A stretch of DNA of 64,000 nucleotides from assembly GCA_964384105.1 (NCBI GenBank), contig CAYLJV010000004.1, positions 64,001 through 128,000 of the forward strand. Reading direction: 5' to 3'. The notes beneath the pieces are model-generated. The model was not told where the DNA came from. It made no database searches and was given only the letters and a program-made list of their open reading frames with translations. The position numbers were made by a program, and so were the translations under genes. The stretch's first letter is position 1, and each line of letters opens with the position of its first letter. Shown here piece after piece: positions 3,057 to 56,368 of the stretch. This DNA is from Candidatus Hadarchaeota archaeon. Its GTDB lineage: Archaea > Hadarchaeota > Hadarchaeia > Hadarchaeales > JAGGTB01.

Positions 3057-4181
3057 TCACGCTATTCCGCCTACTAGATTTATAATCCACCAGTAAATAT
3101 CCCCATAGAAAATAGCTATTGGGACCCCTATAGCGAAAGATGGGGCAAAAGGTAACCCTTCTTTGATTCTTATATGGTTCTCTATTTTTTCTTCTTTAAC
3201 TCCTTTTTTAAGCAATTCAACTTGTTCGTCTGAAACTCCTGCTGCTAAATTACTGTCGGCCAATGTCTTGTCAAATTGTGGTTTTAACTGAAAGTTTTTG
3301 GGATTCTCGAATATCCTTTTAACTGAACTCACGAGTCCTGGGCTTTTATATCTCCTTATTTCATCGTTCTTCTCGTAGATTGTCTCAGCCGGAATCATTC
3401 CTTCCTTCAATTCATTTATAGGAATTTCACTTTGGAGGACGTGTTTGTTGATTACCTTAACTGAGTTTATGATGAATCTAAATCCGAATACTACCACGAA
3501 AGATATTGCCAAGAATTGAAGTATATCTAACGAATGTAAATAAGCGCCGTATCCAGTCAAACCTAGTGCTATTGGAATTCTAATTTGAAAGGGTATTCGA
3601 TAAACTACTAAAATTATAACTAAAACTATCAGAATTTGTGCAATTTGACCCAAATCAAAATAGTTGGTTACTTTAGATCCTAGTATAGATCCTCCTGTCA
3701 ATACAAAAGGTGTTATCAAAATTTCTGGAAAAGCTTCCCTAATAGGTTCAGTAACCTTTCTTCCTATTCCTGGCGTTCGGAGTGATTTTACTATTACATA
3801 TCCGATTAGGACTGGAGCAAGGCAGATAATTCCGTTTAGAAGTATTGTTAGAATGAACGGGTAAGGAGCAGACATGTAAGGTGCATTGTACCCCCCCAGT
3901 AGCGCTCCGAGGGCTGCGTAAAGTTTTACATCCCCCCCGGCCCACCCCCCTATAATCCACATTAGGTAACCTATCCCGAATGTTACTCCAGCCCCGATTC
4001 CACCTGTAACAGCTAATAAAAAATTCTGTTGATAGATACCATATCCGAGATAAAGTGCTATACCTGCTATTATCATTGGAAAAGTCAGCTTGTTCGGGAT
4101 TATTCTTTCCTTTAAGTCGGTATAATTTGCTATAAAAACAGTAGCCAACGCTAATACTGCAACGATTTGGTAGAATACCAT
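3057..4181 (-). CDS. eppA: EppA-like prepilin peptidase (A24 family)
   Basis: YTDLKERIIPN, GGDVKL catalytic Asp motifs, C-terminal LPFAP; extra TM segments (374 aa). Confidence 0.85.
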   Translation of the reverse strand: MVFYQIVAVLALATVFIANYTDLKERIIPNKLTFPMIIAGIALYLGYGIYQQNFLLAVTGGIGAGVTFGIGYLMWIIGGWAGGDVKLYAALGALLGGYNAPYMSAPYPFILTILLNGIICLAPVLIGYVIVKSLRTPGIGRKVTEPIREAFPEILITPFVLTGGSILGSKVTNYFDLGQIAQILIVLVIILVVYRIPFQIRIPIALGLTGYGAYLHSLDILQFLAISFVVVFGFRFIINSVKVINKHVLQSEIPINELKEGMIPAETIYEKNDEIRRYKSPGLVSSVKRIFENPKNFQLKPQFDKTLADSNLAAGVSDEQVELLKKGVKEEKIENHIRIKEGLPFAPSFAIGVPIAIFYGDIYWWIINLVGGIA

Positions 4182-4238
4182 ACTTATCGTTATTAATAAA
4201 AAGTTAATTTATAAATAAATTGTCAGAAATTGGTCAAC

Positions 4239-4409
4239 CTATTTTAAGTCCTTAATAAGATTGTCTCTTATTCCATCGATTTTACTTTCCATTTCAGGCC
4301 CGAGGGAGTCGAAGATTTCGAAAGTAACCGTCACGATACCGGCGATCACTGATAAAGCTACCGCTACCATTAATAAATATTCAATCGCTCCTTGTCCTTT
4401 TTCGTCCAT
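4239..4409 (-). CDS. Small class III signal peptide pilin, 56 aa (not in ORF track)
   Basis: Translated by hand: MDEKG|QGAIEYLLMVAVALSVIAGIVTVTFEIFDSLGPEMESKIDGIRDNLIKDLK*; GAGGATG upstream. Confidence 0.85.
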   Translation of the reverse strand: MDEKGQGAIEYLLMVAVALSVIAGIVTVTFEIFDSLGPEMESKIDGIRDNLIKDLK

Positions 4410-4466
4410 TTTTTACATCCTCTTGTTTCAGTACAAAATAATCTCAGTGAGACTCCATTTGTACGT

Positions 4467-4643
4467 TTAATCTGATAATATGTTCTCTAGGAGTTGATTT
4501 TCTTTTTCTTTTGCTGCGTTTTCCCCAGACTCTGCAAGATCCCTTACATAAATGAAAGCTATTACAATCACTGCTAGTACTCCTGCAAGTATGAGTAGGT
4601 ATTCTGTGGCTCCTTGAGCTTTTTCATCTTTCAAAATTTCCAT
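4467..4643 (-). CDS. Small class III signal peptide pilin
   Basis: MEILKDEKA|QGATEYLLILAGV; ATG at 4643 follows GGAGGTGA SD (track start 4667 is too long). Confidence 0.85.
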   Translation of the reverse strand: MEILKDEKAQGATEYLLILAGVLAVIVIAFIYVRDLAESGENAAKEKENQLLENILSD

Positions 4644-4955
4644 TTTAGTCTCACCTCCACTCATCAAGTAGGTGTAGATATAAATAATCTCCTATTAAAG
4701 TTTATTTTAAGGGATATTAAAATCTATTCCGAACTTTTAGTACTTATTTTTAGTTCTTTTTTAATACAAAGCCCTAGAATTAATCTTTTATAATATATTT
4801 TCGACTAGATTTTCTTGTTTTTGTCTTGCTACGTTTTCCACTGATTTTGCAAGATCCCTCACGTAGGTTACGGCGATTATAATCACTGCTAGTACTCCTG
4901 CAAGTATGAGTAGGTATTCTGTGGCTCCTTGAGCTTTTTCATCTTTCAAAATTTC
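4566..4955. repeat. 75-bp identical direct repeat (4566-4640 and 4881-4955) in the 5' halves of two pilin genes
   Basis: aatcactgctagtactcc...tcaaaatttc matches base for base. Confidence 0.9.
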
Positions 4956-4973
4956 TACTATTTCTTCTGACAT
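4788..4973 (-). CDS. Small class III signal peptide pilin, paralog of 4467..4643
   Basis: KA|QGATEYLLILAGVLAVI identical N-terminal helix. Confidence 0.85.
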   Translation of the reverse strand: MSEEIVEILKDEKAQGATEYLLILAGVLAVIIIAVTYVRDLAKSVENVARQKQENLVENIL

Positions 4974-5025
4974 GTGTTCCTCTGTTCAAGGGTCTAAATT
5001 AACTATTAAAGTTTTTTGTTCAGCA

Positions 5026-6003
5026 TCAAAGAAACAATGTATCAACAAGAATCCGCGAAGCGAAAAAAACACCAATAGCTACACCCATAAATGGCACAGA
5101 ATATGTAAGACCTTTTGATAATTTTCCATATCTGATTACCCCGACTGCTGCACCAGTAATTGCTGCTTGTATTAATATGTAAATTGGGATGATTATGTCT
5201 ATATTGCTTGGTAAGCCTCCTTGTGTGGAAGACCCGAATAACCCAATTCCACCTACACCTCCACCAGTAGTCTCGGTCATTGCAGTTCCTATATTAAGAA
5301 CCATCCCAGAGATAAGTGGAGCAGCAAATAATGCTGCTGCTAATAGGAATAGGACCTGTTGCATAGTTGCTGCTTGCCTTTCTCGTTGGATAGATTGAGT
5401 CTCTCTTATATCTTCTGAAACTGCTTCTAATACGTCTGCTATTGTGGCCCCTCGTTCCATACCTTCTTCTATTAGGAAGAAGGCACGCTCATAGAGTTCT
5501 GATCGCGTTTTTCTAGCCATAGAGATCATTGCCCTCTGCATTGTTCGACCTCTTCTTACTTGAGCAAGCATAAGCTCGATCTCTTCGGAGAGAGCTCCGT
5601 GTTCAGATCCTGCAACATCTTCTAAAGCTCCTTCCAAACTTACTCCTGCCTTTAGTGAGGCGGAGATCTGCCTTAATGCATCAGGTAGGGCATTTTCTAA
5701 TTCAGAGGTTCTTCTTTGAATTAGGTAGATCGGAACTATCATTGTTAGACTAGCTAGAGTTCCGTACAATGCTATTATCGCATATACTATATCAGGCAGT
5801 AAAGGAAAATTGAATACAAAAGAAATTCCAAAAATGGCTCCTCCAGCTATTAGACTTATCATTATTGAGATACCACAATATTCCGATCCAGAAAGAGCGA
5901 TATTGGTCGCTCTCAATTTGTTATTAACATCCTCTAAAAATCTCTGAGGGAGGGCTTTCTGAGCTAATATGTCCATTACTCTAAGTATAGACATTTTATA
6001 CAC
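5026..6003 (-). CDS. Type IV pilus membrane platform protein (TadC/T2SSF family)
   Basis: LPDALRQISASLKAG..GALSEE T2SSF domain, TM helices. Confidence 0.85.
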   Translation of the reverse strand: MYKMSILRVMDILAQKALPQRFLEDVNNKLRATNIALSGSEYCGISIMISLIAGGAIFGISFVFNFPLLPDIVYAIIALYGTLASLTMIVPIYLIQRRTSELENALPDALRQISASLKAGVSLEGALEDVAGSEHGALSEEIELMLAQVRRGRTMQRAMISMARKTRSELYERAFFLIEEGMERGATIADVLEAVSEDIRETQSIQRERQAATMQQVLFLLAAALFAAPLISGMVLNIGTAMTETTGGGVGGIGLFGSSTQGGLPSNIDIIIPIYILIQAAITGAAVGVIRYGKLSKGLTYSVPFMGVAIGVFFASRILVDTLFL

Positions 6004-20324: not shown

Positions 20325-20641
20325 TGGTGGCGAGCTAGGCCGGGGAGCTAGCGGTTCCCTATACGAAAATCCGCTATATGTCGGGCCGAAGCTCTGGGGC
20401 GGCGTTCGGAACCACACGTCGGCTCGACTCGGAGCGTAGACGCCTCGTCCTGTTGGGTCGCTGGTGGCGGACTCTCAACCGGAGGGTTGAGACGAACCGC
20501 CTTCGCCTGCTGAATCCGGTCAGGGACGGAAGTCCGCAGCTGTAGGCAGGACAGTTGGCGCTTGCAGGGTCGCGGGGCCGAGCTACCGACCGAGTGTCAG
20601 GCGTGTGGGGAAGGCGTCCACCCAGAGCCCGTTCGCCACCA
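20325..20641 (+). ncRNA. ffs: Archaeal signal recognition particle (7S) RNA
   Basis: Terminal helix tggtggcga/tcgccacca, Alu-like 5' domain, helix 6 GGAG loop, helix 8 CAGG-GAC-GGAA-GTC; ~316 nt. Confidence 0.93.
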
Positions 20642-20731: not shown

Positions 20732-20821
20732 GCCGGGGTGGCCCAGTCTGGTAACGGCGCTGGCTTGCTAAGCCAGTTGCGCGAGAGCGCTTCCTGGGTT
20801 CAAATCCCAGCCCCGGCGCCA
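20732..20821 (+). tRNA. tRNA-Ser(GCT), CCA encoded
   Basis: gccgggg/ccccggc acceptor, anticodon arm ctggc-tt-GCT-aa-gccag, long variable arm, GTTCAAATC. Confidence 0.96.
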
Positions 20822-31813: not shown

Positions 31814-31887
31814 GGGCCCGTGGTCTAGTTGGCTATGACGTCGCCTTTACGAGGCGAAAATCGAGGGTTCGAATCCCTCCGGGCCCA
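31814..31887 (+). tRNA. tRNA-Val(TAC)
   Basis: gggcccg/cgggccc acceptor, tcgcc-tt-TAC-ga-ggcga anticodon arm, GTTCGAATC; CCA not encoded. Confidence 0.96.
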
Positions 31888-48224: not shown

Positions 48225-48545
48225 ATGAGCAAGGATTTAGAAATAGATACAAAGGAAGGTATAGAATTTTTAGAGAAGTATGATGGGGTACGAGAAGGAT
48301 AAGAAAATTTCAGTTAAAGAAATACTTGGCCTTTCGGGAAAAACTGTAGAGAATTGATAGATGAAACGGAACAGAACTGGAACAAATCCCGAAGGGAGAG
48401 GGGGTTCTCAACTGAACATCAGATTGGCAGATTCAAAAAATGGTTAGAAAAGAGAGTTATAGCGATCATACTATTTCCAATCCTTCGGGAGGGGTCCGAA
48501 CTTTCTATAACTTCAACAAGTTTTACTAAACTCAAGCAGGCTTAA
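48225..48545 (+). pseudogene. Degraded N-terminal (core-binding) part of an archaeal tyrosine integrase
   Basis: Fragments across stop/frameshifts: LKKYLAF, RELIDETE..SRRERG..FKKWL, YSDHTI..GGVRTFYNFN. Confidence 0.5.
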
Positions 48546-48894
48546 TTCGAGGAATAGTGCAAAGCCAGAAACTCAAGTTATGGCTATTGATTGTAAGAAG
48601 ATGAGAAAAATATACAATTCTACCAATTCAAAACGAAACAAATCACTCTTATTATTCCTTTATTCCTGTATCAGACAGGGCAATCATCAAGTCAAATATC
48701 CGAGCTGTATTACGGTGATGTGAGTCCAGAGTTAAAAAAGAAAAAATACCCCTTAAAGATTTCATACATCGAGCGTAAAGGTTCTGGACTAAGTTCTTGC
48801 ACTTTCTTAGGTGCTGACGCGATTGAGGCTTTAAAATATTATCACGACAAGCAACCCGAAAGACATATATAACAACTTTTCTTTCTTGAAATCT

Positions 48895-48953
48895 GGCGAT
48901 GAGGTCCGCCTTGACCATTTGGTCTGAACTGTCCGTTAGGCTGATGACTTCTG
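48895..48953 (+). promoter_or_regulatory. Fluoride (crcB-motif) riboswitch
   Basis: GGCGATGAGGTCCGCC...AACTGTCC..GGCTGATGACTTCTG consensus, GAGGTC/GACTTC pseudoknot; TATATAA at 48866-48872. Confidence 0.9.
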
Positions 48954-48976
48954 TGAATTGAAAGGAAGTTTCAGCC

Positions 48977-49072
48977 ATGTTCAAAATATACCCGTATGAA
49001 AAAAGAAGAGATCCCAATACAAGAACTATTCTAACATTTCTCACCAATAAGGGGGTCAAAACTTGCTTTTAG
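48977..49072 (+). CDS. Putative 31-aa leader uORF overlapping the antiporter start
   Basis: AAAGGAAG SD, MFKIYPYEKRRDPNTRTILTFLTNKGVKTCF*. Confidence 0.4.
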   Translation: MFKIYPYEKRRDPNTRTILTFLTNKGVKTCF

Positions 49073-50655
49073 GCATATTGCTCATCCTAGCAGTAGGTTT
49101 TCTACTCGGAGAGTTAGCCGGACGATTGGGGTTACCTAAGTTGATAGGTATGTTGTTCGGCGGAATACTCATAGGACCAAACGTTCTAGATCTCTTGACT
49201 GAACCGATATATGCAGTATCAAACGAGATAAGATTGTTCGTTCTTTTAGTGATCCTATTCAAAGCAGGACTCGGTCTTGATAAGGAGAAATTGATGGCTC
49301 AGGGTAGCGTTGCATTGAGGCTTGGGTCCATCCCCTGTATTTTGGAAACGTTCGTTGTTGCCGCCACCACCAGGTGGTTGCTAGGGTGGGGTTGGATATA
49401 CTGTTTCTTACTAGGATGGATCATCTGCGCGGCCTCTCCCGCCGTGATAGTTCCAATGATGCTGAAGTTGAAGTCAAAAGGATGGGGTTCAGAAAAAGGG
49501 ATACCCGACCTGATACTTGCAGGAGGTACCTTGAGTGATGCTGTAGCGGTAACAATGTTCGGCATCACGACTGCCTGGATAGTCGGTAACGGTCAAAACG
49601 CATGGCTACAATTAGGAAACATTCCGTTCAAGATCATCATGGGAATCGTTTTAGGATATGTTGCTGGACGGTTAGCTTTGTTGGTCATCGATAGGGCAAA
49701 GCTGACAGGAGAGGTCATACCCGAGCTAATAATAAGTCTTGGTATAGGTATCCTTCTACTTGTTGGCGAAGCATACCTACCTTACTCGGATTATCTAGCT
49801 ATAATGGTCATGGGTTTTGTTATATTAGACAGGGATACTGTGCTTGCTAGAAGGTTGAGGCGTGAAGTCGACAAGGTGTGGCAGGTGGGGGAAATATTCC
49901 TATTTGTACTGATAGGTGCAGCGGTAGATATACATGTAATATCTTCAACCGGTCTTACCGGTTTAGCAATAATCGGCATCGGTTTGATCGTTGGAAGGAC
50001 TTTGGGTATATGGGTGTCCACTTGGCGTTCTATAATAAATTTTAAGGAGAGAATATTCATGATCATAGGTCAAACTCCTAAGGCAACAGTTCAAGCTGCC
50101 ATAGGTGGAATACCTCTGACTCTAGGTATGATGCATGGGGAATATATACTAGCCATCGCTGTACTATCCATAATCATCACCGCTCCTTTAGGGGCTTTTG
50201 GAACAGAGTATTTTACACCAAAATTCCTCAAAAAGGGTGAAGTAGATCCGACTAAAGTTACGGTGAAAGAGGATTATAAGTTTCTTGTCGCGATGGATGG
50301 TTCTCGTGCATCAAGCAAAGCTTTGAAGGAAGCAGCCCGTATAGCTAGGCAGGTAGATGCAGAGTTGATAATCGTCAACATCTTTAACAAGATCGACAAG
50401 AAGCTCTCATCCGAGAGGATAGAAAGTGAACTCGAAGTAGTTGAAGATATCGACCATGAGTTTTTGATGTATGAAGGAGATTGTGCAGAATGTATAGTTA
50501 AGACCGCCCTGGCTTATGACGTAGACTCCTTGTATATGGGTAAAACCGGTAACTCTTCAGGCAACAATACATTGATCGGTAGAGTCAGTAAGGAGGTGGT
50601 TGAGAAGTCTCCCATACCAGTGATACTGGTGGAGGATGATTCAGATGATGAATGA
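49063..50655 (+). CDS. Cation:proton antiporter (NHA/SLC9B-like) fused to universal stress protein domain
   Basis: ASPAVIVPMM, PKATVQAAIG; C-terminal LVAMDGS..GRVSKEVVEKSPIPVILV USP. Confidence 0.9.
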   Translation: MLLGILLILAVGFLLGELAGRLGLPKLIGMLFGGILIGPNVLDLLTEPIYAVSNEIRLFVLLVILFKAGLGLDKEKLMAQGSVALRLGSIPCILETFVVAATTRWLLGWGWIYCFLLGWIICAASPAVIVPMMLKLKSKGWGSEKGIPDLILAGGTLSDAVAVTMFGITTAWIVGNGQNAWLQLGNIPFKIIMGIVLGYVAGRLALLVIDRAKLTGEVIPELIISLGIGILLLVGEAYLPYSDYLAIMVMGFVILDRDTVLARRLRREVDKVWQVGEIFLFVLIGAAVDIHVISSTGLTGLAIIGIGLIVGRTLGIWVSTWRSIINFKERIFMIIGQTPKATVQAAIGGIPLTLGMMHGEYILAIAVLSIIITAPLGAFGTEYFTPKFLKKGEVDPTKVTVKEDYKFLVAMDGSRASSKALKEAARIARQVDAELIIVNIFNKIDKKLSSERIESELEVVEDIDHEFLMYEGDCAECIVKTALAYDVDSLYMGKTGNSSGNNTLIGRVSKEVVEKSPIPVILVEDDSDDE

Positions 50656-50749
50656 TACTTATACCGTACTGAAAACCTTGGCAGAGGTTATAGTAGATTC
50701 CGAGCGATCTACTTGCTGGAAATGTATCAAAAAAAGGATTTTTTTCTCT

Positions 50750-51790: not shown

Positions 51791-53734
51791 ATGATGAAGA
51801 GAGGAGGAAAAAAGAAGAGAGACAGTGGAGCATCTTATGACAAAAGCCTTCTTACTGATCACGATATTTACCTTTTTAAAGAAGGAAATCACTTTAAGCT
51901 CTACGAAAAGTTAGGTTCCCAACTGATTTCCGATAGCGAAGGCGAAGGAGCTTATTTTGCGGTTTGGGCCCCCAATGCTTCCGAAATATCGGTCATTGGC
52001 GATTTTAATGGTTGGAACAGTGGGAAAAATCCTTTAGAGAAAAGAAGTGATGATTCAGGGATTTGGGAAGGTTTTATTCCTGGTATTAGCCAGGGGGAGG
52101 TATACAAATATCACATAAAATCTGGGAACGGGAATTATGAGGTTGATAAGGCCGACCCATTTGCTTTCCGCAATGAAGAACCCCCAAAAACCGCTTCGGT
52201 AGTTTGGGATCTTGATTACGATTGGGATGATAAAGAATGGATGAAAAAGCGGTCTGACTTTAATTCGCTTAATTCTCCTATCTCCGTTTACGAAATTCAC
52301 CTCGGTTCTTGGAAACGAGTTTCAGGAGAAGGAAATCGATATCTTAACTATCGGGAATTTGCTCCAGAACTCGTGAGCCACTTAGATGAAACAGGCTTTA
52401 CCCACGTGGAGTTTATGCCGTTACTCGAACATCCTTTTTATGGATCTTGGGGATACCAGGCTACGGGATATTTTTCACCCACTAGTCGGTATGGAGATCC
52501 GGAAGATCTGATGTATCTAATTGATTACCTTCATCAACATGATATTGGGGTGATTATGGATTGGGTTCCGTCTCATTTTCCTGCTGATGAGCACGGACTT
52601 AGTTACTTTGACGGGTCTCATCTTTACGAATACGAGGATCCCAGGAAGGGGTATCATCCCGATTGGAATAGCTATATTTTCGATTATGGGCGGGAAGGAG
52701 TAAGAAACTTCCTTATTAGTAGCGCGTTATTTTGGCTGGATAGATACCATCTGGATGGCTTGAGAATTGATGGAGTTGCCTCAATGTTGTATTTGGATTA
52801 TTCTAGACGCTCTGGTGAGTGGATTCCTAATAGGTATGGAGGAAGAGAGAACCTCGAAGCCATCGATTTTTTGAAAAGTCTGAACAGAGAAGCCTTCAAA
52901 AAGTTTCCTGATATTCAGATGGTAGCTGAGGAGTCCACAGCATGGCCTATGGTTACTAGGCCAACTTCAGTTGGTGGACTTGGGTTTAGCATGAAGTGGA
53001 ATATGGGTTGGATGCATGATACGTTAGACTATTTTTCTAAGGACCCAATTTATAGAAAGTTCCATCAGAACGAGTTAACCTTTAGCTTTTACTATGCATT
53101 TGACGAGAACTTTATTCTCTCCCTTTCCCACGACGAGGTGGTTCATGGAAAGGGTTCTCTTCTCGATAAGATGTCGGGGGATGATTGGCAAAAATTTGCT
53201 AATCTCCGTCTTTTATTAGGTTATATGTTTGCACATCCCGGGAAGAAATTGCTGTTCATGGGTGCCGAGTTTGGCCAGTGGGACGAATGGGATCATGATA
53301 AAAGTCTAGATTGGCATCTCGCACAATACGATCGGCATAGAGCTATTCAGAATTGGGTGAAGGACTTAAATGACTTTTACAGAAAGGAGCCAATTATGCA
53401 TGAGAATGATTTCAAGCATAAAGGATTTGAATGGATAAGTTCTGATTTTGAGAACAGTGTTTTATCTTTTTTGAGGAAAGATAATAAATCTAATTATATG
53501 TTGTCAGTCTGCAACTTTACCCCGGTTCCTCGAGAAAATTATCGAGTAGGAGTTCCTCTGGAGGGTAAATGGAAAGAGGTTCTAAATAGTGATGCTGAGG
53601 ATTACGGTGGGTCGGGATATGGGAATTTCGGTGGTCTTGAGACGGCTCCTGTCTCGATGCACGGTAGGGAAAAATCCCTTTCTTTGACACTTCCTCCTTT
53701 AGGCATAGTTTTCTTCAGTGGACCAAAACGATAG
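51791..53734 (+). CDS. glgB: 1,4-alpha-glucan branching enzyme (GH13)
   Basis: [45 protein letters not shown]. Confidence 0.96.
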
Positions 53735-53944
53735 ATTAGAATATTGGTGACGAAAGTTGTGGGTTCCGGAGTTGAATCCTTTTTTAGAAAGTTGTTGTGG
53801 AAGTATTTTACTTGATGGAAAAAGATTATTTTCTTTACTGAGAAAAAGTGAATGGAGTTAATACGTGTTGCGAGGAAATGTGAAAGGGTATCAAAATTTA
53901 CGAATTAACCCCAAAATCATTGTATATTATGAAAAGGGAGAACT

Positions 53945-56368
53945 ATGAGCCAGGAGATCTGTATCCATGGTCATTTCTACCAGCCTCCTAGGGAGAATCC
54001 ATGGTTGGAAGAGGTTGAATTTCAGGATTCTGCTAAACCCTACCATGATTGGAATGAGAGAATAACTGATGAATGCTATGCTCCGAATACTGCGTCAAGA
54101 ATTTTGGATTCAGAAAGGCGGATAATTGATGTTGTTGATAACTATTCAAGAATGAGTTTCAATTTTGGTCCAACTCTTCTTTCGTGGATGGAGGATCACG
54201 CTCCTGATGTTTATCAGAGTATTCTTGAATCTGATAAAGAGAGTCAAGAAAAATTTTCAGGACATGGATCTGCTATTGCTCAGGCCTATAATCATATGAT
54301 AATGCCCCTTGCTAACGAGAAAGATAAGAGAACTCAGGTGGTCTGGGGTTTAAGAGATTTTAAAGAGAGATTTGAAAGAGACCCGGAGGGTATGTGGCTT
54401 CCAGAAACCGCTGTAGATCTGGAGACTTTGGATATAATGGCAGAGTACGGAATTAAATTTACAATACTTGCCCCCAGACAGGCTAAGAGAGTCAGAAAGA
54501 TTGGGGAAGAAGAGTGGAAGGATGTTAGTGAAGAAAAGGTCGATCCGAGAAGACCATATTTATGTAATCTGAAATCGGGAAGAAGTATTGTCATATTTTT
54601 CTATAATGGTCCTATATCAAAGGATGTGGGTTTTGGAGACCTTATCCACAATGGTGAAAAATTTGCCGAAAGGTTAATCGGGTCCTTTTCTGAAGGAGAT
54701 ACCGACTCCCAAATTGTGAATATAGCTACCGATGGAGAGACATATGGACACCACCACAGGTTTGGGGATATGACGCTGGCTAGATGCTTGTATAAGATCG
54801 AATCTAGCGACAATGCGGAACTTACTGTCTATGGAAAATATTTGGAGGAAAATCCTCCGGAGTACGAGGTTGAAATCTTTGAAAATACTTCATGGAGTTG
54901 TGTACACGGTGTAGAAAGATGGAAAGATGATTGTGGATGCAACTCGGGTTCAAATCCCGATTGGAATCAAAAATGGAGAAAACCTTTGCGTAAGGCAATG
55001 AACCAGCTTAGAGATTCGCTTGCTTCTATTTATGAAAAGAATGCCGATTATTTCCTGAAGGATCCGTGGGAAGCTAGAAATGACTACATAGATGTTGTCT
55101 TGGACCGTTCTTCGGAAAATGTGAGAGCTTATCTTTCTAAACATTCGAAGAAGGATTTATCTCCTGAAGAAACTGTGAAGGTTCTTAAACTACTAGAGAT
55201 GCAAAGAAATTCCATGTTGATGTTTACTAGTTGCGGCTGGTTCTTCGATGAAATTTCGGGAGAAGAAGCTGTGCAAGTGATGCGTTATGCAGCCCGGGCA
55301 ATGCAGTTAGCTCAGGACCTTAATGGAAGTAATCTGGAATCGGAATATCTAAAGATTCTAGAGCAAGCACCCAGCAATGTTCAGAAGTATAAGAATGGAG
55401 TAGAGGTTTTTGAAGATTTGGTTAAATCAAGTGTTGTTGATTTTCCACGTGTATGTGCTCACTATGCTGTGTCCTCGCTTTTCGAGGATTACCCAGATAA
55501 AACTGTGATTGATTGCTTCAATTTAGACAGGGAAATATATGAATTGGAGAATGTGGGGGATCAGAAGCTTGCTGTGGGGAAAGTGGGCGTGAGATCCAAT
55601 ATTACTTGGGAGGAGCGGTCGTTGGCCTTTGCGGTACTATATATGGGAGACCATAACATAATCGGTGGAGTTCTCGAGAACTTTGAGAATGAGTACTTTG
55701 AGGAGATCAAAGGGAGAGTAAAAAAATCATTTCAGAAAAGTAATATTTCTGAGACATTTCATGTGATAGATGAGAACTTTGGAGAAAACAATTACTCATT
55801 ATGGCATCTCTTTAGAGATGAGCAAAGAAAGGTCCTCAAACAGATATTAGAGCCTAAAATTAAAGAAACGGAAAAGATTCTCCACGAGCGATACCAGGAT
55901 TTTTATCCGACGATAAGAGCGATAAGAGAAATCCAATATCCCATGCCAAAGATTATCAAAAGGATTGGGGATTTTGTCCTCAACTTGGATTTAAGGAATT
56001 TGCTGAGAAGAGAAGATTTGGATTTAGGAGAGCTTCAGGAACTTGTTGTTGAAATTAAAATCGGATCTTTTGAGGTGGATAAAACTATGATTGGCTATGA
56101 AGCTACGAGAAAAGTTAATGAATTGATGGATAAACTTTCTCAAAATCCAGAGGATACATATATTCTAAAGAAAGTTGAGAATATTCTCGAGATTTTATTG
56201 GACTTGGACCTAGATTTGAACTTTTGGAAAGCTCAGAATGCTTATTTCTCTGTAGGGAAAGCAATTTACCATAAAATGAAAGATAGAGCTGATCAGGATA
56301 AAGATGCTGAAAGGTGGATAGAAACTTTTGATAAATTAGGAAATTATCTGAACGTGAAAATATCATGA
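53945..56368 (+). CDS. GH57 family glycoside hydrolase with DUF3536
   Basis: HGHFYQPPRENPW, WLPETA, DGETYGHH, MFTSCGWFFDE. Confidence 0.92.
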   Translation: MSQEICIHGHFYQPPRENPWLEEVEFQDSAKPYHDWNERITDECYAPNTASRILDSERRIIDVVDNYSRMSFNFGPTLLSWMEDHAPDVYQSILESDKESQEKFSGHGSAIAQAYNHMIMPLANEKDKRTQVVWGLRDFKERFERDPEGMWLPETAVDLETLDIMAEYGIKFTILAPRQAKRVRKIGEEEWKDVSEEKVDPRRPYLCNLKSGRSIVIFFYNGPISKDVGFGDLIHNGEKFAERLIGSFSEGDTDSQIVNIATDGETYGHHHRFGDMTLARCLYKIESSDNAELTVYGKYLEENPPEYEVEIFENTSWSCVHGVERWKDDCGCNSGSNPDWNQKWRKPLRKAMNQLRDSLASIYEKNADYFLKDPWEARNDYIDVVLDRSSENVRAYLSKHSKKDLSPEETVKVLKLLEMQRNSMLMFTSCGWFFDEISGEEAVQVMRYAARAMQLAQDLNGSNLESEYLKILEQAPSNVQKYKNGVEVFEDLVKSSVVDFPRVCAHYAVSSLFEDYPDKTVIDCFNLDREIYELENVGDQKLAVGKVGVRSNITWEERSLAFAVLYMGDHNIIGGVLENFENEYFEEIKGRVKKSFQKSNISETFHVIDENFGENNYSLWHLFRDEQRKVLKQILEPKIKETEKILHERYQDFYPTIRAIREIQYPMPKIIKRIGDFVLNLDLRNLLRREDLDLGELQELVVEIKIGSFEVDKTMIGYEATRKVNELMDKLSQNPEDTYILKKVENILEILLDLDLDLNFWKAQNAYFSVGKAIYHKMKDRADQDKDAERWIETFDKLGNYLNVKIS

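Follow-up and report, generated by a model that had tools for sequence, protein, structure and literature searches.

A fluoride riboswitch and an NHA2-like antiporter-USP fusion in an apparently mobile archaeal cassette

Why would an archaeon place a cation:proton antiporter, instead of a fluoride exporter, behind a fluoride riboswitch? The question is raised by a locus in a 64,000-nucleotide stretch of DNA from a Candidatus Hadarchaeota archaeon (contig CAYLJV010000004.1, positions 64,001 to 128,000; hereafter "the window"), which lies on contig 4 of a 1.62-Mb assembly of 12 contigs that is 90.2% complete (G000). Here an RNA of the fluoride riboswitch family precedes a single gene for an antiporter fused to a USP domain. 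After exporters, Na+/H+ antiporters are the genes most often associated with fluoride riboswitches, and a 2024 review gives their role as pH homeostasis (PMC11139923). The locus is an archaeal, horizontally mobile example of this known pairing; earlier riboswitch papers may already list such fusions or platforms. We think it fairly probable that it is a mobile cassette in which fluoride induces an NHA2-like cation/H+ exchanger, through a translational switch acting on a short upstream open reading frame (uORF), and that the exchanger resets the pH gradient governing the distribution of HF and fluoride.

The aptamer and the antiporter it precedes

The aptamer and gene comprise the following features:
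48886-48960 (core 48895-48953), + strand: fluoride riboswitch aptamer (crcB motif, RF01734), full-length match above cut-off
48913-48924, + strand: extra hairpin between P1 and P2 (GACC-AUUU-GGUC), an insertion relative to the Rfam model, present in 5/5 archaeal copies
49063-50655, + strand: gene for a 530-aa cation:proton antiporter-USP fusion (P0001), TTG start, assigned by Pfam
49099-50190, + strand: Na_H_Exchanger transmembrane domain, residues 13-376 (PF00999, E 1.2e-37)
49534-49539, + strand: codons AGT GAT for Ser158-Asp159, at the Asp-Asp ion-binding pair of NHA2 in alignments to 7b4l and 7p1i
50278-50631, + strand: C-terminal USP domain, residues 406-523 (PF00582, E 2.5e-16)

Searches of the window and of the whole genome agree on an Rfam match to RF01734 (Fluoride) at 48886-48960 on the + strand, which spans the full model (1-64/64) at 42.6 bits (E 1.9e-8; gathering score 34 bits). 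All strongly conserved model positions are matched, and P1, P2 and the pseudoknot strands are in place: in the functional core (48895-48953), P1 starts from GGCG at 48895 and the 3' pseudoknot strand GACUUCU occupies 48946-52. The pseudoknot partners, in the published aptamer structure the loop region of P1 and the 3' tail, are complementary both in the window and in four orthologous archaeal loci described below (L004-L007), with GAGGUC (window and L004) or GAAGUC (L005-L007) facing GACUUC; the G-to-A change replaces a G-U pair by an A-U pair and keeps complementarity. The window aptamer differs from the Rfam model by a 13-nt insertion, which holds the extra P1-P2 hairpin, and one hairpin pair is changed on both sides (A-U to G-C) among the five copies. 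No second fluoride riboswitch scored above the cut-off anywhere in the source genome (as a control, the search was positive in 4/14 named genomes). An archaeal fluoride riboswitch is on record from Thermococcus kodakarensis (cited by PMC8241225). We regard the RNA at this locus as a genuine fluoride sensor, which would be expected to respond to the ion.

The next long open reading frame (ORF) on the same strand, beginning about 100 nt beyond the aptamer, is the antiporter-USP gene. Its PF00999 and PF00582 matches score 130.1 bits (cut-off 26.2) and 61 bits (cut-off 24), respectively, and the USP domain also matches the PDB structures 3loq and 1wjg; NCBIfam K+/H+ and CPA2 models matched below threshold only. 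Among solved structures of cation:proton antiporters (CPAs), those closest to P0001 are bison and human NHA2/SLC9B2 (7b4l, E 1.2e-43; 7p1i, E 1.2e-42; residues 3-393), with the similarity to NHA2 extending over 391 residues and the motifs SPAV and PKATVQAAIG common to both proteins. Archaeal NhaP structures are much farther away, at about 1e-8 (PaNhaP, 4cza, 7e-9). The motifs ASPAV, GGTLSDAV and PKATVQA lie at 0-based offsets 123, 153 and 338, and GGTLSDAV aligns over AGSFDDIL of NHA2, such that Ser158 takes the place of the first Asp of the Asp-Asp pair in the TM5-equivalent helix (TM, transmembrane helix) and Asp159 that of the second. An aptamer at 48895-48953 below a TATA box, a single fusion gene, NHA/SLC9B signatures with GGTLSDAV replacing the Asp-Asp pair, and a previously noted link of fluoride riboswitches to Na+/H+ antiporters had all been proposed in a sequence-only reading of this DNA; the covariance model, the two Pfam domains on one ORF, the NHA2 alignment and the review cited above (PMC11139923) bear these proposals out.

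Other features of the NHA2 site are kept. Asp159, Glu95, Arg312 and Lys340 align with NHA2 D278, E214/215, R431/432 and the lysine of PKATVQ, and none of the four falls below 95% conservation in a set of 80 sequences made up of the query and 79 of the 80 metagenome homologues, L052 being left out. In NHA2 the Glu-Arg pair is described as specific to that protein, the second Asp is strictly conserved and transport is electroneutral (PMC8850199); Glu95 (TM3) and Arg312 (TM10) match this pair by sequence position, as distinct from contact in three dimensions. NHA2 has a 14-helix architecture (PMC12072577). P0001 has no room for the N-terminal tail and additional helix of NHA2, as its residue 3 aligns with about chain residue 116, and it adds a C-terminal USP domain. 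An "animal-NHA-like" clade of CPA2 includes prokaryotes, and CPA2 members without an acidic residue at motif position 6 are predicted to be electroneutral (Masrati 2018, PMC6181914). By its sequence P0001 falls into this prokaryotic NHA2/SLC9B-like clade and, because Asp159 is the single carboxylate at its ion site, the same framework points to electroneutral exchange of a monovalent cation for H+. P0001 is thus probably a one-for-one cation/H+ exchanger with Asp159 as the carrier. The USP domain would be a cytoplasmic regulatory module. The source genome has a second PF00999 gene, on contig 2, and no riboswitch was found at its locus, so we read the riboswitch-linked antiporter as an inducible extra copy.

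The Ser-Asp branch and the reach of the fluoride link

To judge what the Ser-Asp site means, we surveyed the family. A protein-collection search with P0001 gave 5811 matches at E <= 1e-10 among 7998 scored candidates, and 116 of the best 120 of these carry both Pfam domains. Named relatives at 54-57% identity belong to Halarsenatibacter, Alkalispirochaeta and Spirochaetaceae, and those at 43-45% to cyanobacteria. In a 20-sequence alignment (A2) neither Ser158 nor Asp159 varies, and the 15 commonest site patterns, which cover 85/121 sequences, are all Ser-Asp. Scanning metagenomes with A2 yielded 575 relatives, of which the best 80, a sample biased to query-like sequences, were analysed. They fall into two types: 26 are fused to USP and have Ser-Asp (24) or Ser-Asn (2), whereas 53 lack USP, are about 390-490 aa long and have Asp-Asp (51) or Asp-Asn (2); in the remaining locus, L052, the motif region is missing. 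At the motif column, Ser is found in every one of 27 USP-fused sequences (100%), and each of 53 short ones (100%) has Asp.

The sequence-only reading had given Ser-Asp a special meaning for fluoride, to be checked by its co-occurrence with the riboswitch and with the absence of Fluc and CLC-F, and the survey does not support such a meaning. Of the best 80 loci, 47 have an RF01734 match above the gathering threshold that lies 35-264 nt upstream of the gene on its strand, ahead of 14/26 Ser-type and 33/53 Asp-type genes (14/24 and 33/52 when loci with less than 150 nt of upstream sequence are set aside). In a FastTree phylogeny of 143 rows (the query, every second of the 120 database matches, the four other archaeal copies and 78 metagenome loci, with L044 and L052 left out; midpoint root), Ser-type and Asp-type sequences separate with support of 100 each, and riboswitch-positive loci are scattered through both. 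Since the riboswitch accompanies both types, the fluoride link belongs to the whole prokaryotic NHA2-like family, and Ser-Asp is a clade-wide trait of its USP-fused branch that is not specific to fluoride.

Exporters next to the metagenome genes were judged from immediate neighbours. Among the 90 same-strand flanking ORFs of at least 80 aa around the 80 genes, two match Voltage_CLC; the families matched at least twice do not include CRCB. Both Voltage_CLC genes stand directly downstream of Ser-type antiporters (L026 and L044) and carry GREGT/V and GEVTP, which together with GNNLI/GMGLI are the signatures of CLC-F (PMC11139923). A single fluoride riboswitch likewise precedes an operon of a CLC and an NhaP-type antiporter in Clostridioides difficile (PMC11477304). 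Taken with the review's assignment to pH homeostasis, these pairings favour a helper function for the antiporter over a replacement of the exporter.

Other observations came from the same survey. Position 124 of P0001 (window 49432-49434) corresponds to Glu (AESPAV) in 89% of the 27 Ser-type sequences and to Val in 98% of the Asp-type ones, and the query's own subclade has Ala there; the Glu of most Ser-type sequences may be a relocated carboxylate that compensates for the lost Asp. On the bacterial-type contig L021, a first fluoride riboswitch (L021:1007-1068) is followed by a 190-aa ORF (L021:1052-1624), a second riboswitch and the antiporter. This ORF has no Pfam match, an ORF 44% identical to it lies upstream of the antiporter in L022 (L022:1701-2327), and the two could encode an uncharacterised fluoride-regulated protein. 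In both loci an M-box (magnesium) riboswitch begins no more than about 100 nt downstream of the antiporter-USP gene (L021:3452-3535 and L022:4157-4261, each cut at the contig end). In L071 the antiporter gene is followed by a second fluoride riboswitch (L071:2976-3044), which precedes a 584-aa ORF (3290-5044).

A probably transferable cassette in genomes without recognisable exporters

Where else in archaea does the arrangement occur? Orthologues at 83-87% identity were found in four metagenome-assembled genomes (MAGs) of Thermoplasmata archaea (loci L004-L007, genomes G061-G064), all four with RF01734 upstream (43.2-47.6 bits) and with the same extra P1-P2 hairpin. Similarity between the window and these loci is confined to 48939-50680, and no shared flanks or synteny were found outside it. 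No antiporter-USP gene was found in 60 relatives of the source genome, from the same genus to the same order, at E <= 1e-20, or, at E <= 1e-40, in any of the other genomes among the 65 of its class; as the gene is missing from the rest of the class, the four MAGs lie outside it. The neighbouring gene at 51791-53734 has a 67%-identical homologue in a genome of the same order and none in the four MAGs, which supports the contig being native to the source genome. The tree groups the archaeal copies in a single clade (support 100), and this clade is nested among bacterial-type sequences. The simplest reading of these comparisons is that the complete cassette was transferred between archaeal lineages, in whichever direction, and came ultimately from bacteria.

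Two further leads were set aside. GC content is 0.43-0.45 in the gene and 0.36-0.41 around it, too weak a difference to count as a sign of transfer, and a supposed integrase remnant upstream (48318-48872) matched nothing in Pfam at E <= 0.05. That interval holds three overlapping open frames on the + strand (75, 70 and 91 aa) in different phases, just 5' of the cassette, and they may be what is left of a gene that decayed where the cassette was inserted. On the other side, at 51791-56368 (+ strand), two genes for glycan enzymes lie next to each other. The first to be named has CBM48, alpha-amylase and Alpha-amylase_C domains, the other GH57 and DUF3536, and together they look like a glycogen or alpha-glucan module. 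Elsewhere the window holds an archaeal signal recognition particle RNA (190 bits) and a pair of tRNAs, of which one has a long extra arm (20328-20638, 20732-20818 and 31814-31887); with a G+C content of 0.61-0.68 they are much richer in these bases than the DNA around them.

That the window lacks crcB and CLC genes had been seen from its sequence, and the absence extends to the whole 90.2%-complete genome: neither CrcB (PF02537) nor CLC (PF00654, Voltage_CLC) gave a match in either, in searches that were positive for CrcB in 11/14 and for CLC in 12/14 named control genomes. CrcB was also absent from all 61 genomes around the source genome, which represent a small archaeal class with genomes of about 1 Mb, and from the four Thermoplasmata MAGs. 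All four MAGs have CLC genes, which show GREGP and GIFAP and lack every CLC-F signature. The antiporter is, as far as sequence allows one to recognise such genes, the sole fluoride-regulated gene in the five cassette genomes, and its riboswitch is the only fluoride riboswitch in four of them, G061 having a second one that is cut at a contig end. Within the class of the source genome, that genome alone had a fluoride riboswitch above the cut-off among the genomes searched.

It is tempting to suppose that the cassette replaced CrcB. Among 61 genomes around G061, three have the cassette, 12 have CrcB, none has both and 46 have neither, so that CrcB is missing from 49 of the 61. We discarded the idea of replacement on these counts (CrcB in 0/3 cassette genomes and 12/58 others): the counts are too low, and the nearest relatives have neither gene. 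As the absence of CrcB is the background of these lineages, a replacement cannot be shown. Near G061 we also found the canonical archaeal order, a riboswitch directly upstream of crcB, in its relative L112 (L112:1866-1936, - strand, 49 bits), and no fluoride riboswitch at the five other crcB loci.

Comparison with known systems places the cassette as follows. With Fluc (CrcB) and CLC-F it shares the regulatory RNA and presumably the physiological trigger, whereas P0001 has no sequence relationship to either and a cation-type binding site. With the bacterial riboswitch-associated Na+/H+ antiporters (Baker et al. 2012, via PMC11139923; C. difficile CD0656-7, PMC11477304) it shares both gene family and RNA; it differs in its archaeal host and promoter, its uORF platform and a genome, 90% complete, with no exporter gene.

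A candidate uORF switch and the readings it leaves

Between the promoter and the antiporter, and beyond the gene's end, we noted these features:
48857-48872, + strand: archaeal promoter candidate, read from the sequence, with a B recognition element (BRE)-like CGAAAGAC and then a TATA box ATATATAA (48865-48872)
48939-48976, + strand: predicted OFF-state hairpin, in which the P2 3' strand and GACUUCU pair with the uORF Shine-Dalgarno region GGAAGUUUCAGCC
48964-48968, + strand: uORF ribosome-binding site GGAAG; AAAGGAAG and CCATG are invariant in the five-sequence alignment A1
48977-49072, + strand: uORF of 31 codons, encoding MFKIYPYEKRRDPNTRTILTFLTNKGVKTCF followed by a UAG stop that overlaps the antiporter start region
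49051-49055, + strand: antiporter ribosome-binding site GGGGG, 7 nt 5' of the TTG (GGAGG in the other four copies)
50739-50745, + strand: seven-T run about 85 nt past the stop codon, a candidate archaeal terminator, given oligo-T termination in archaea

The TATA box ATATATAA ends 22 nt 5' of stem P1. Its region aligns with a TTTATAA conserved in the four related loci, within an AAAGA(Y)TTATAA block present in all five archaeal copies, and the order of elements from 5' to 3' is the same in each: TATA region, aptamer, AAAGGAAG, CCATG. The uORF frame is open in 5/5 copies (27-31 codons) despite a 12-nt indel, the length of which is a multiple of three, and in 5/5 it ends with TGC TTT TAG over the conserved TTG of the antiporter. 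The peptide itself is poorly conserved.

The predicted OFF-state hairpin appears in the minimum free energy fold, in the centroid fold and in the consensus fold of the five leaders. It pairs the 3' half of the aptamer with GGAAGU and the following bases, up to or over the uORF ATG, and although its 3' strand varies among copies, complementarity is retained. Its energies in the window and then in the four orthologues are -17.1, -19.6, -10.6, -10.6 and -11.3 kcal/mol, with z of -4.0, -4.6, -2.1, -2.0 and -2.6 in the same order against 300 mononucleotide shuffles; the whole leader is about as stable as its shuffles (z 0.32). The consensus fold also produced a long-range pairing in which the strands of P1 meet the main ribosome-binding site and the TTG; it was set aside, since all its columns are invariant and hence provide no evidence. 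Bacterial homologues mostly have a terminator-like stem and U-run directly after the aptamer, whereas the window leader has what appears to be a sequestered uORF overlapping the main start codon, and no T-run was found between aptamer and start codon in the window copy. Conservation and predicted folding thus suggest a translational ON switch that acts via the uORF, an expression platform that is possibly new.

In this model, the cassette would be self-contained and horizontally mobile, with its own archaeal promoter, fluoride riboswitch, short uORF and antiporter-USP gene. Without fluoride, the 3' half of the aptamer would pair with the uORF's ribosome-binding site and the region of its start codon and block its translation; once fluoride is bound, the aptamer pseudoknot would capture the 3' strand and the uORF would be translated. 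Ribosomes ending at the UAG, which overlaps the TTG, might then open the antiporter start or re-initiate there. Once induced, the exchanger would reset both the cytoplasmic pH and the pH gradient of a cell without an exit pathway for fluoride. For such a cell Ji et al. 2014 (PMC4144673) give [F-]in/[F-]ex = [H+]ex/[H+]in, and because the pH gradient sets cytoplasmic fluoride, an induced cation/H+ exchanger would act on that very variable.

It could do so in two ways. With net H+ uptake, fluoride would leave as HF and the load would fall; with net H+ extrusion, acidification would be corrected. The direction cannot be read from the sequence, and we lean only slightly to H+ uptake. The named relatives are haloalkaliphiles, and a similar habitat may be presumed here; at high pH HF-driven acidification should be negligible, hence the lean. 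A USP-bearing antiporter of Arthrospira, which may or may not belong to this family, is more expressed at pH 11 according to a preprint (10.1101/344416), and serves as a lead only.

Several points weigh against the switch and the exchange that we propose. True covariation is nearly nil across the five leaders, with one compensatory pair, which lies in the extra hairpin; the leaders are close kin, and both strands of the OFF-state helix are constrained for other reasons, one as aptamer and the other as ribosome-binding site. The hairpin is weak in L005-L007, where 3-14 of 300 shuffles fold equally well. An open uORF frame could arise by chance in a short A/T-rich leader, and a second frame is likewise open in L005-L007. 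On the side of transport, we know of no characterised CPA with Ser at motif position 6, and an electroneutral Na+/H+ exchanger working at high pH and high Na+ would on simple thermodynamic grounds take up Na+ and lose H+, which misfits H+ uptake unless the cation is K+.

Some of these points lead to another account of the leader, in which the same exchanger is controlled at the level of transcription or RNA stability and the uORF is a chance open frame. The terminators of most bacterial homologues, the poor conservation of the peptide, the second open frame in L005-L007 and the unremarkable stability of the whole leader all speak for it. Set against it are the lack of a T-run between aptamer and start codon in the window copy, the invariance of AAAGGAAG and CCATG directly after the aptamer, the indel in a multiple of three, the stop-start overlap in 5/5 copies and a local hairpin stabler than shuffles, and we consider this account rather unlikely. 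That the aptamer is a relic, or has changed its ligand on account of the extra hairpin, and that the gene is an ordinary salt or pH antiporter with no role in fluoride, seems to us hardly credible. Its 13-nt insertion and a score just 8.6 bits over the cut-off would fit such a history; yet the insert lies outside the core and forms a hairpin that covaries, all strongly conserved positions are matched, the pseudoknot strands are complementary, the aptamer is kept in five diverged copies and the family is riboswitch-linked in 47/80 loci.

A bolder alternative is that the antiporter-USP protein exports fluoride itself, by F-/H+ exchange or by efflux coupled to Na+ or another cation, making the USP-fused Ser-Asp branch a third class of exporter. 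It draws on the genomes, in that CrcB was not found in 5/5 cassette genomes, the source genome lacks CLC, the CLCs of the other four have GREGP and GIFAP in place of CLC-F signatures, and the cassette holds the sole fluoride riboswitch in 4/5; and on the protein, where loss of one carboxylate changes the charge of the ion site. However, Asp-Asp homologues with a canonical cation site are equally riboswitch-linked (33/53 against 14/26), Asp159, Glu95, Arg312 and Lys340 are conserved, and no anion-binding feature was identified in P0001. Two Ser-Asp loci adjoin a CLC-F-type gene and the C. difficile operon pairs both gene types, while the lack of CrcB is background: 0/61 genomes around the source genome have it and that genome alone has the cassette, and 46/61 around G061 have neither. 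We hold fluoride export to be very unlikely. Of the two functions offered by the sequence-only reading, the countering of an HF or pH problem, with USP as regulator, remains the best, and fluoride export found no specific support.

Our preferred reading, a fluoride-induced NHA2-like cation/H+ exchanger under a translational uORF switch, bears on a function that has been described only in general terms in the accounts available to us, the 2024 review placing riboswitch-controlled Na+/H+ antiporters in pH homeostasis (PMC11139923). Our literature search found no paper that joins NHA2, SLC9B, CPA2 or NhaP with a fluoride riboswitch. The presence of a riboswitch in 47 of the 80 sampled homologues of NHA2/SLC9B2 suggests that this prokaryotic family is largely devoted to the fluoride response. 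Little is known of expression platforms in archaea, and the conserved uORF is a candidate for the way in which riboswitches exert control there. Should the export reading prove true, fluoride exporters would have a third class that has gone unrecognised, and the protein would be the sole fluoride defence of archaea without Fluc and CLC-F. The archaea that carry the cassette offer a natural test case, in which any protection from fluoride would be due to nothing but cation/H+ exchange, or else to transport of an unexpected kind.

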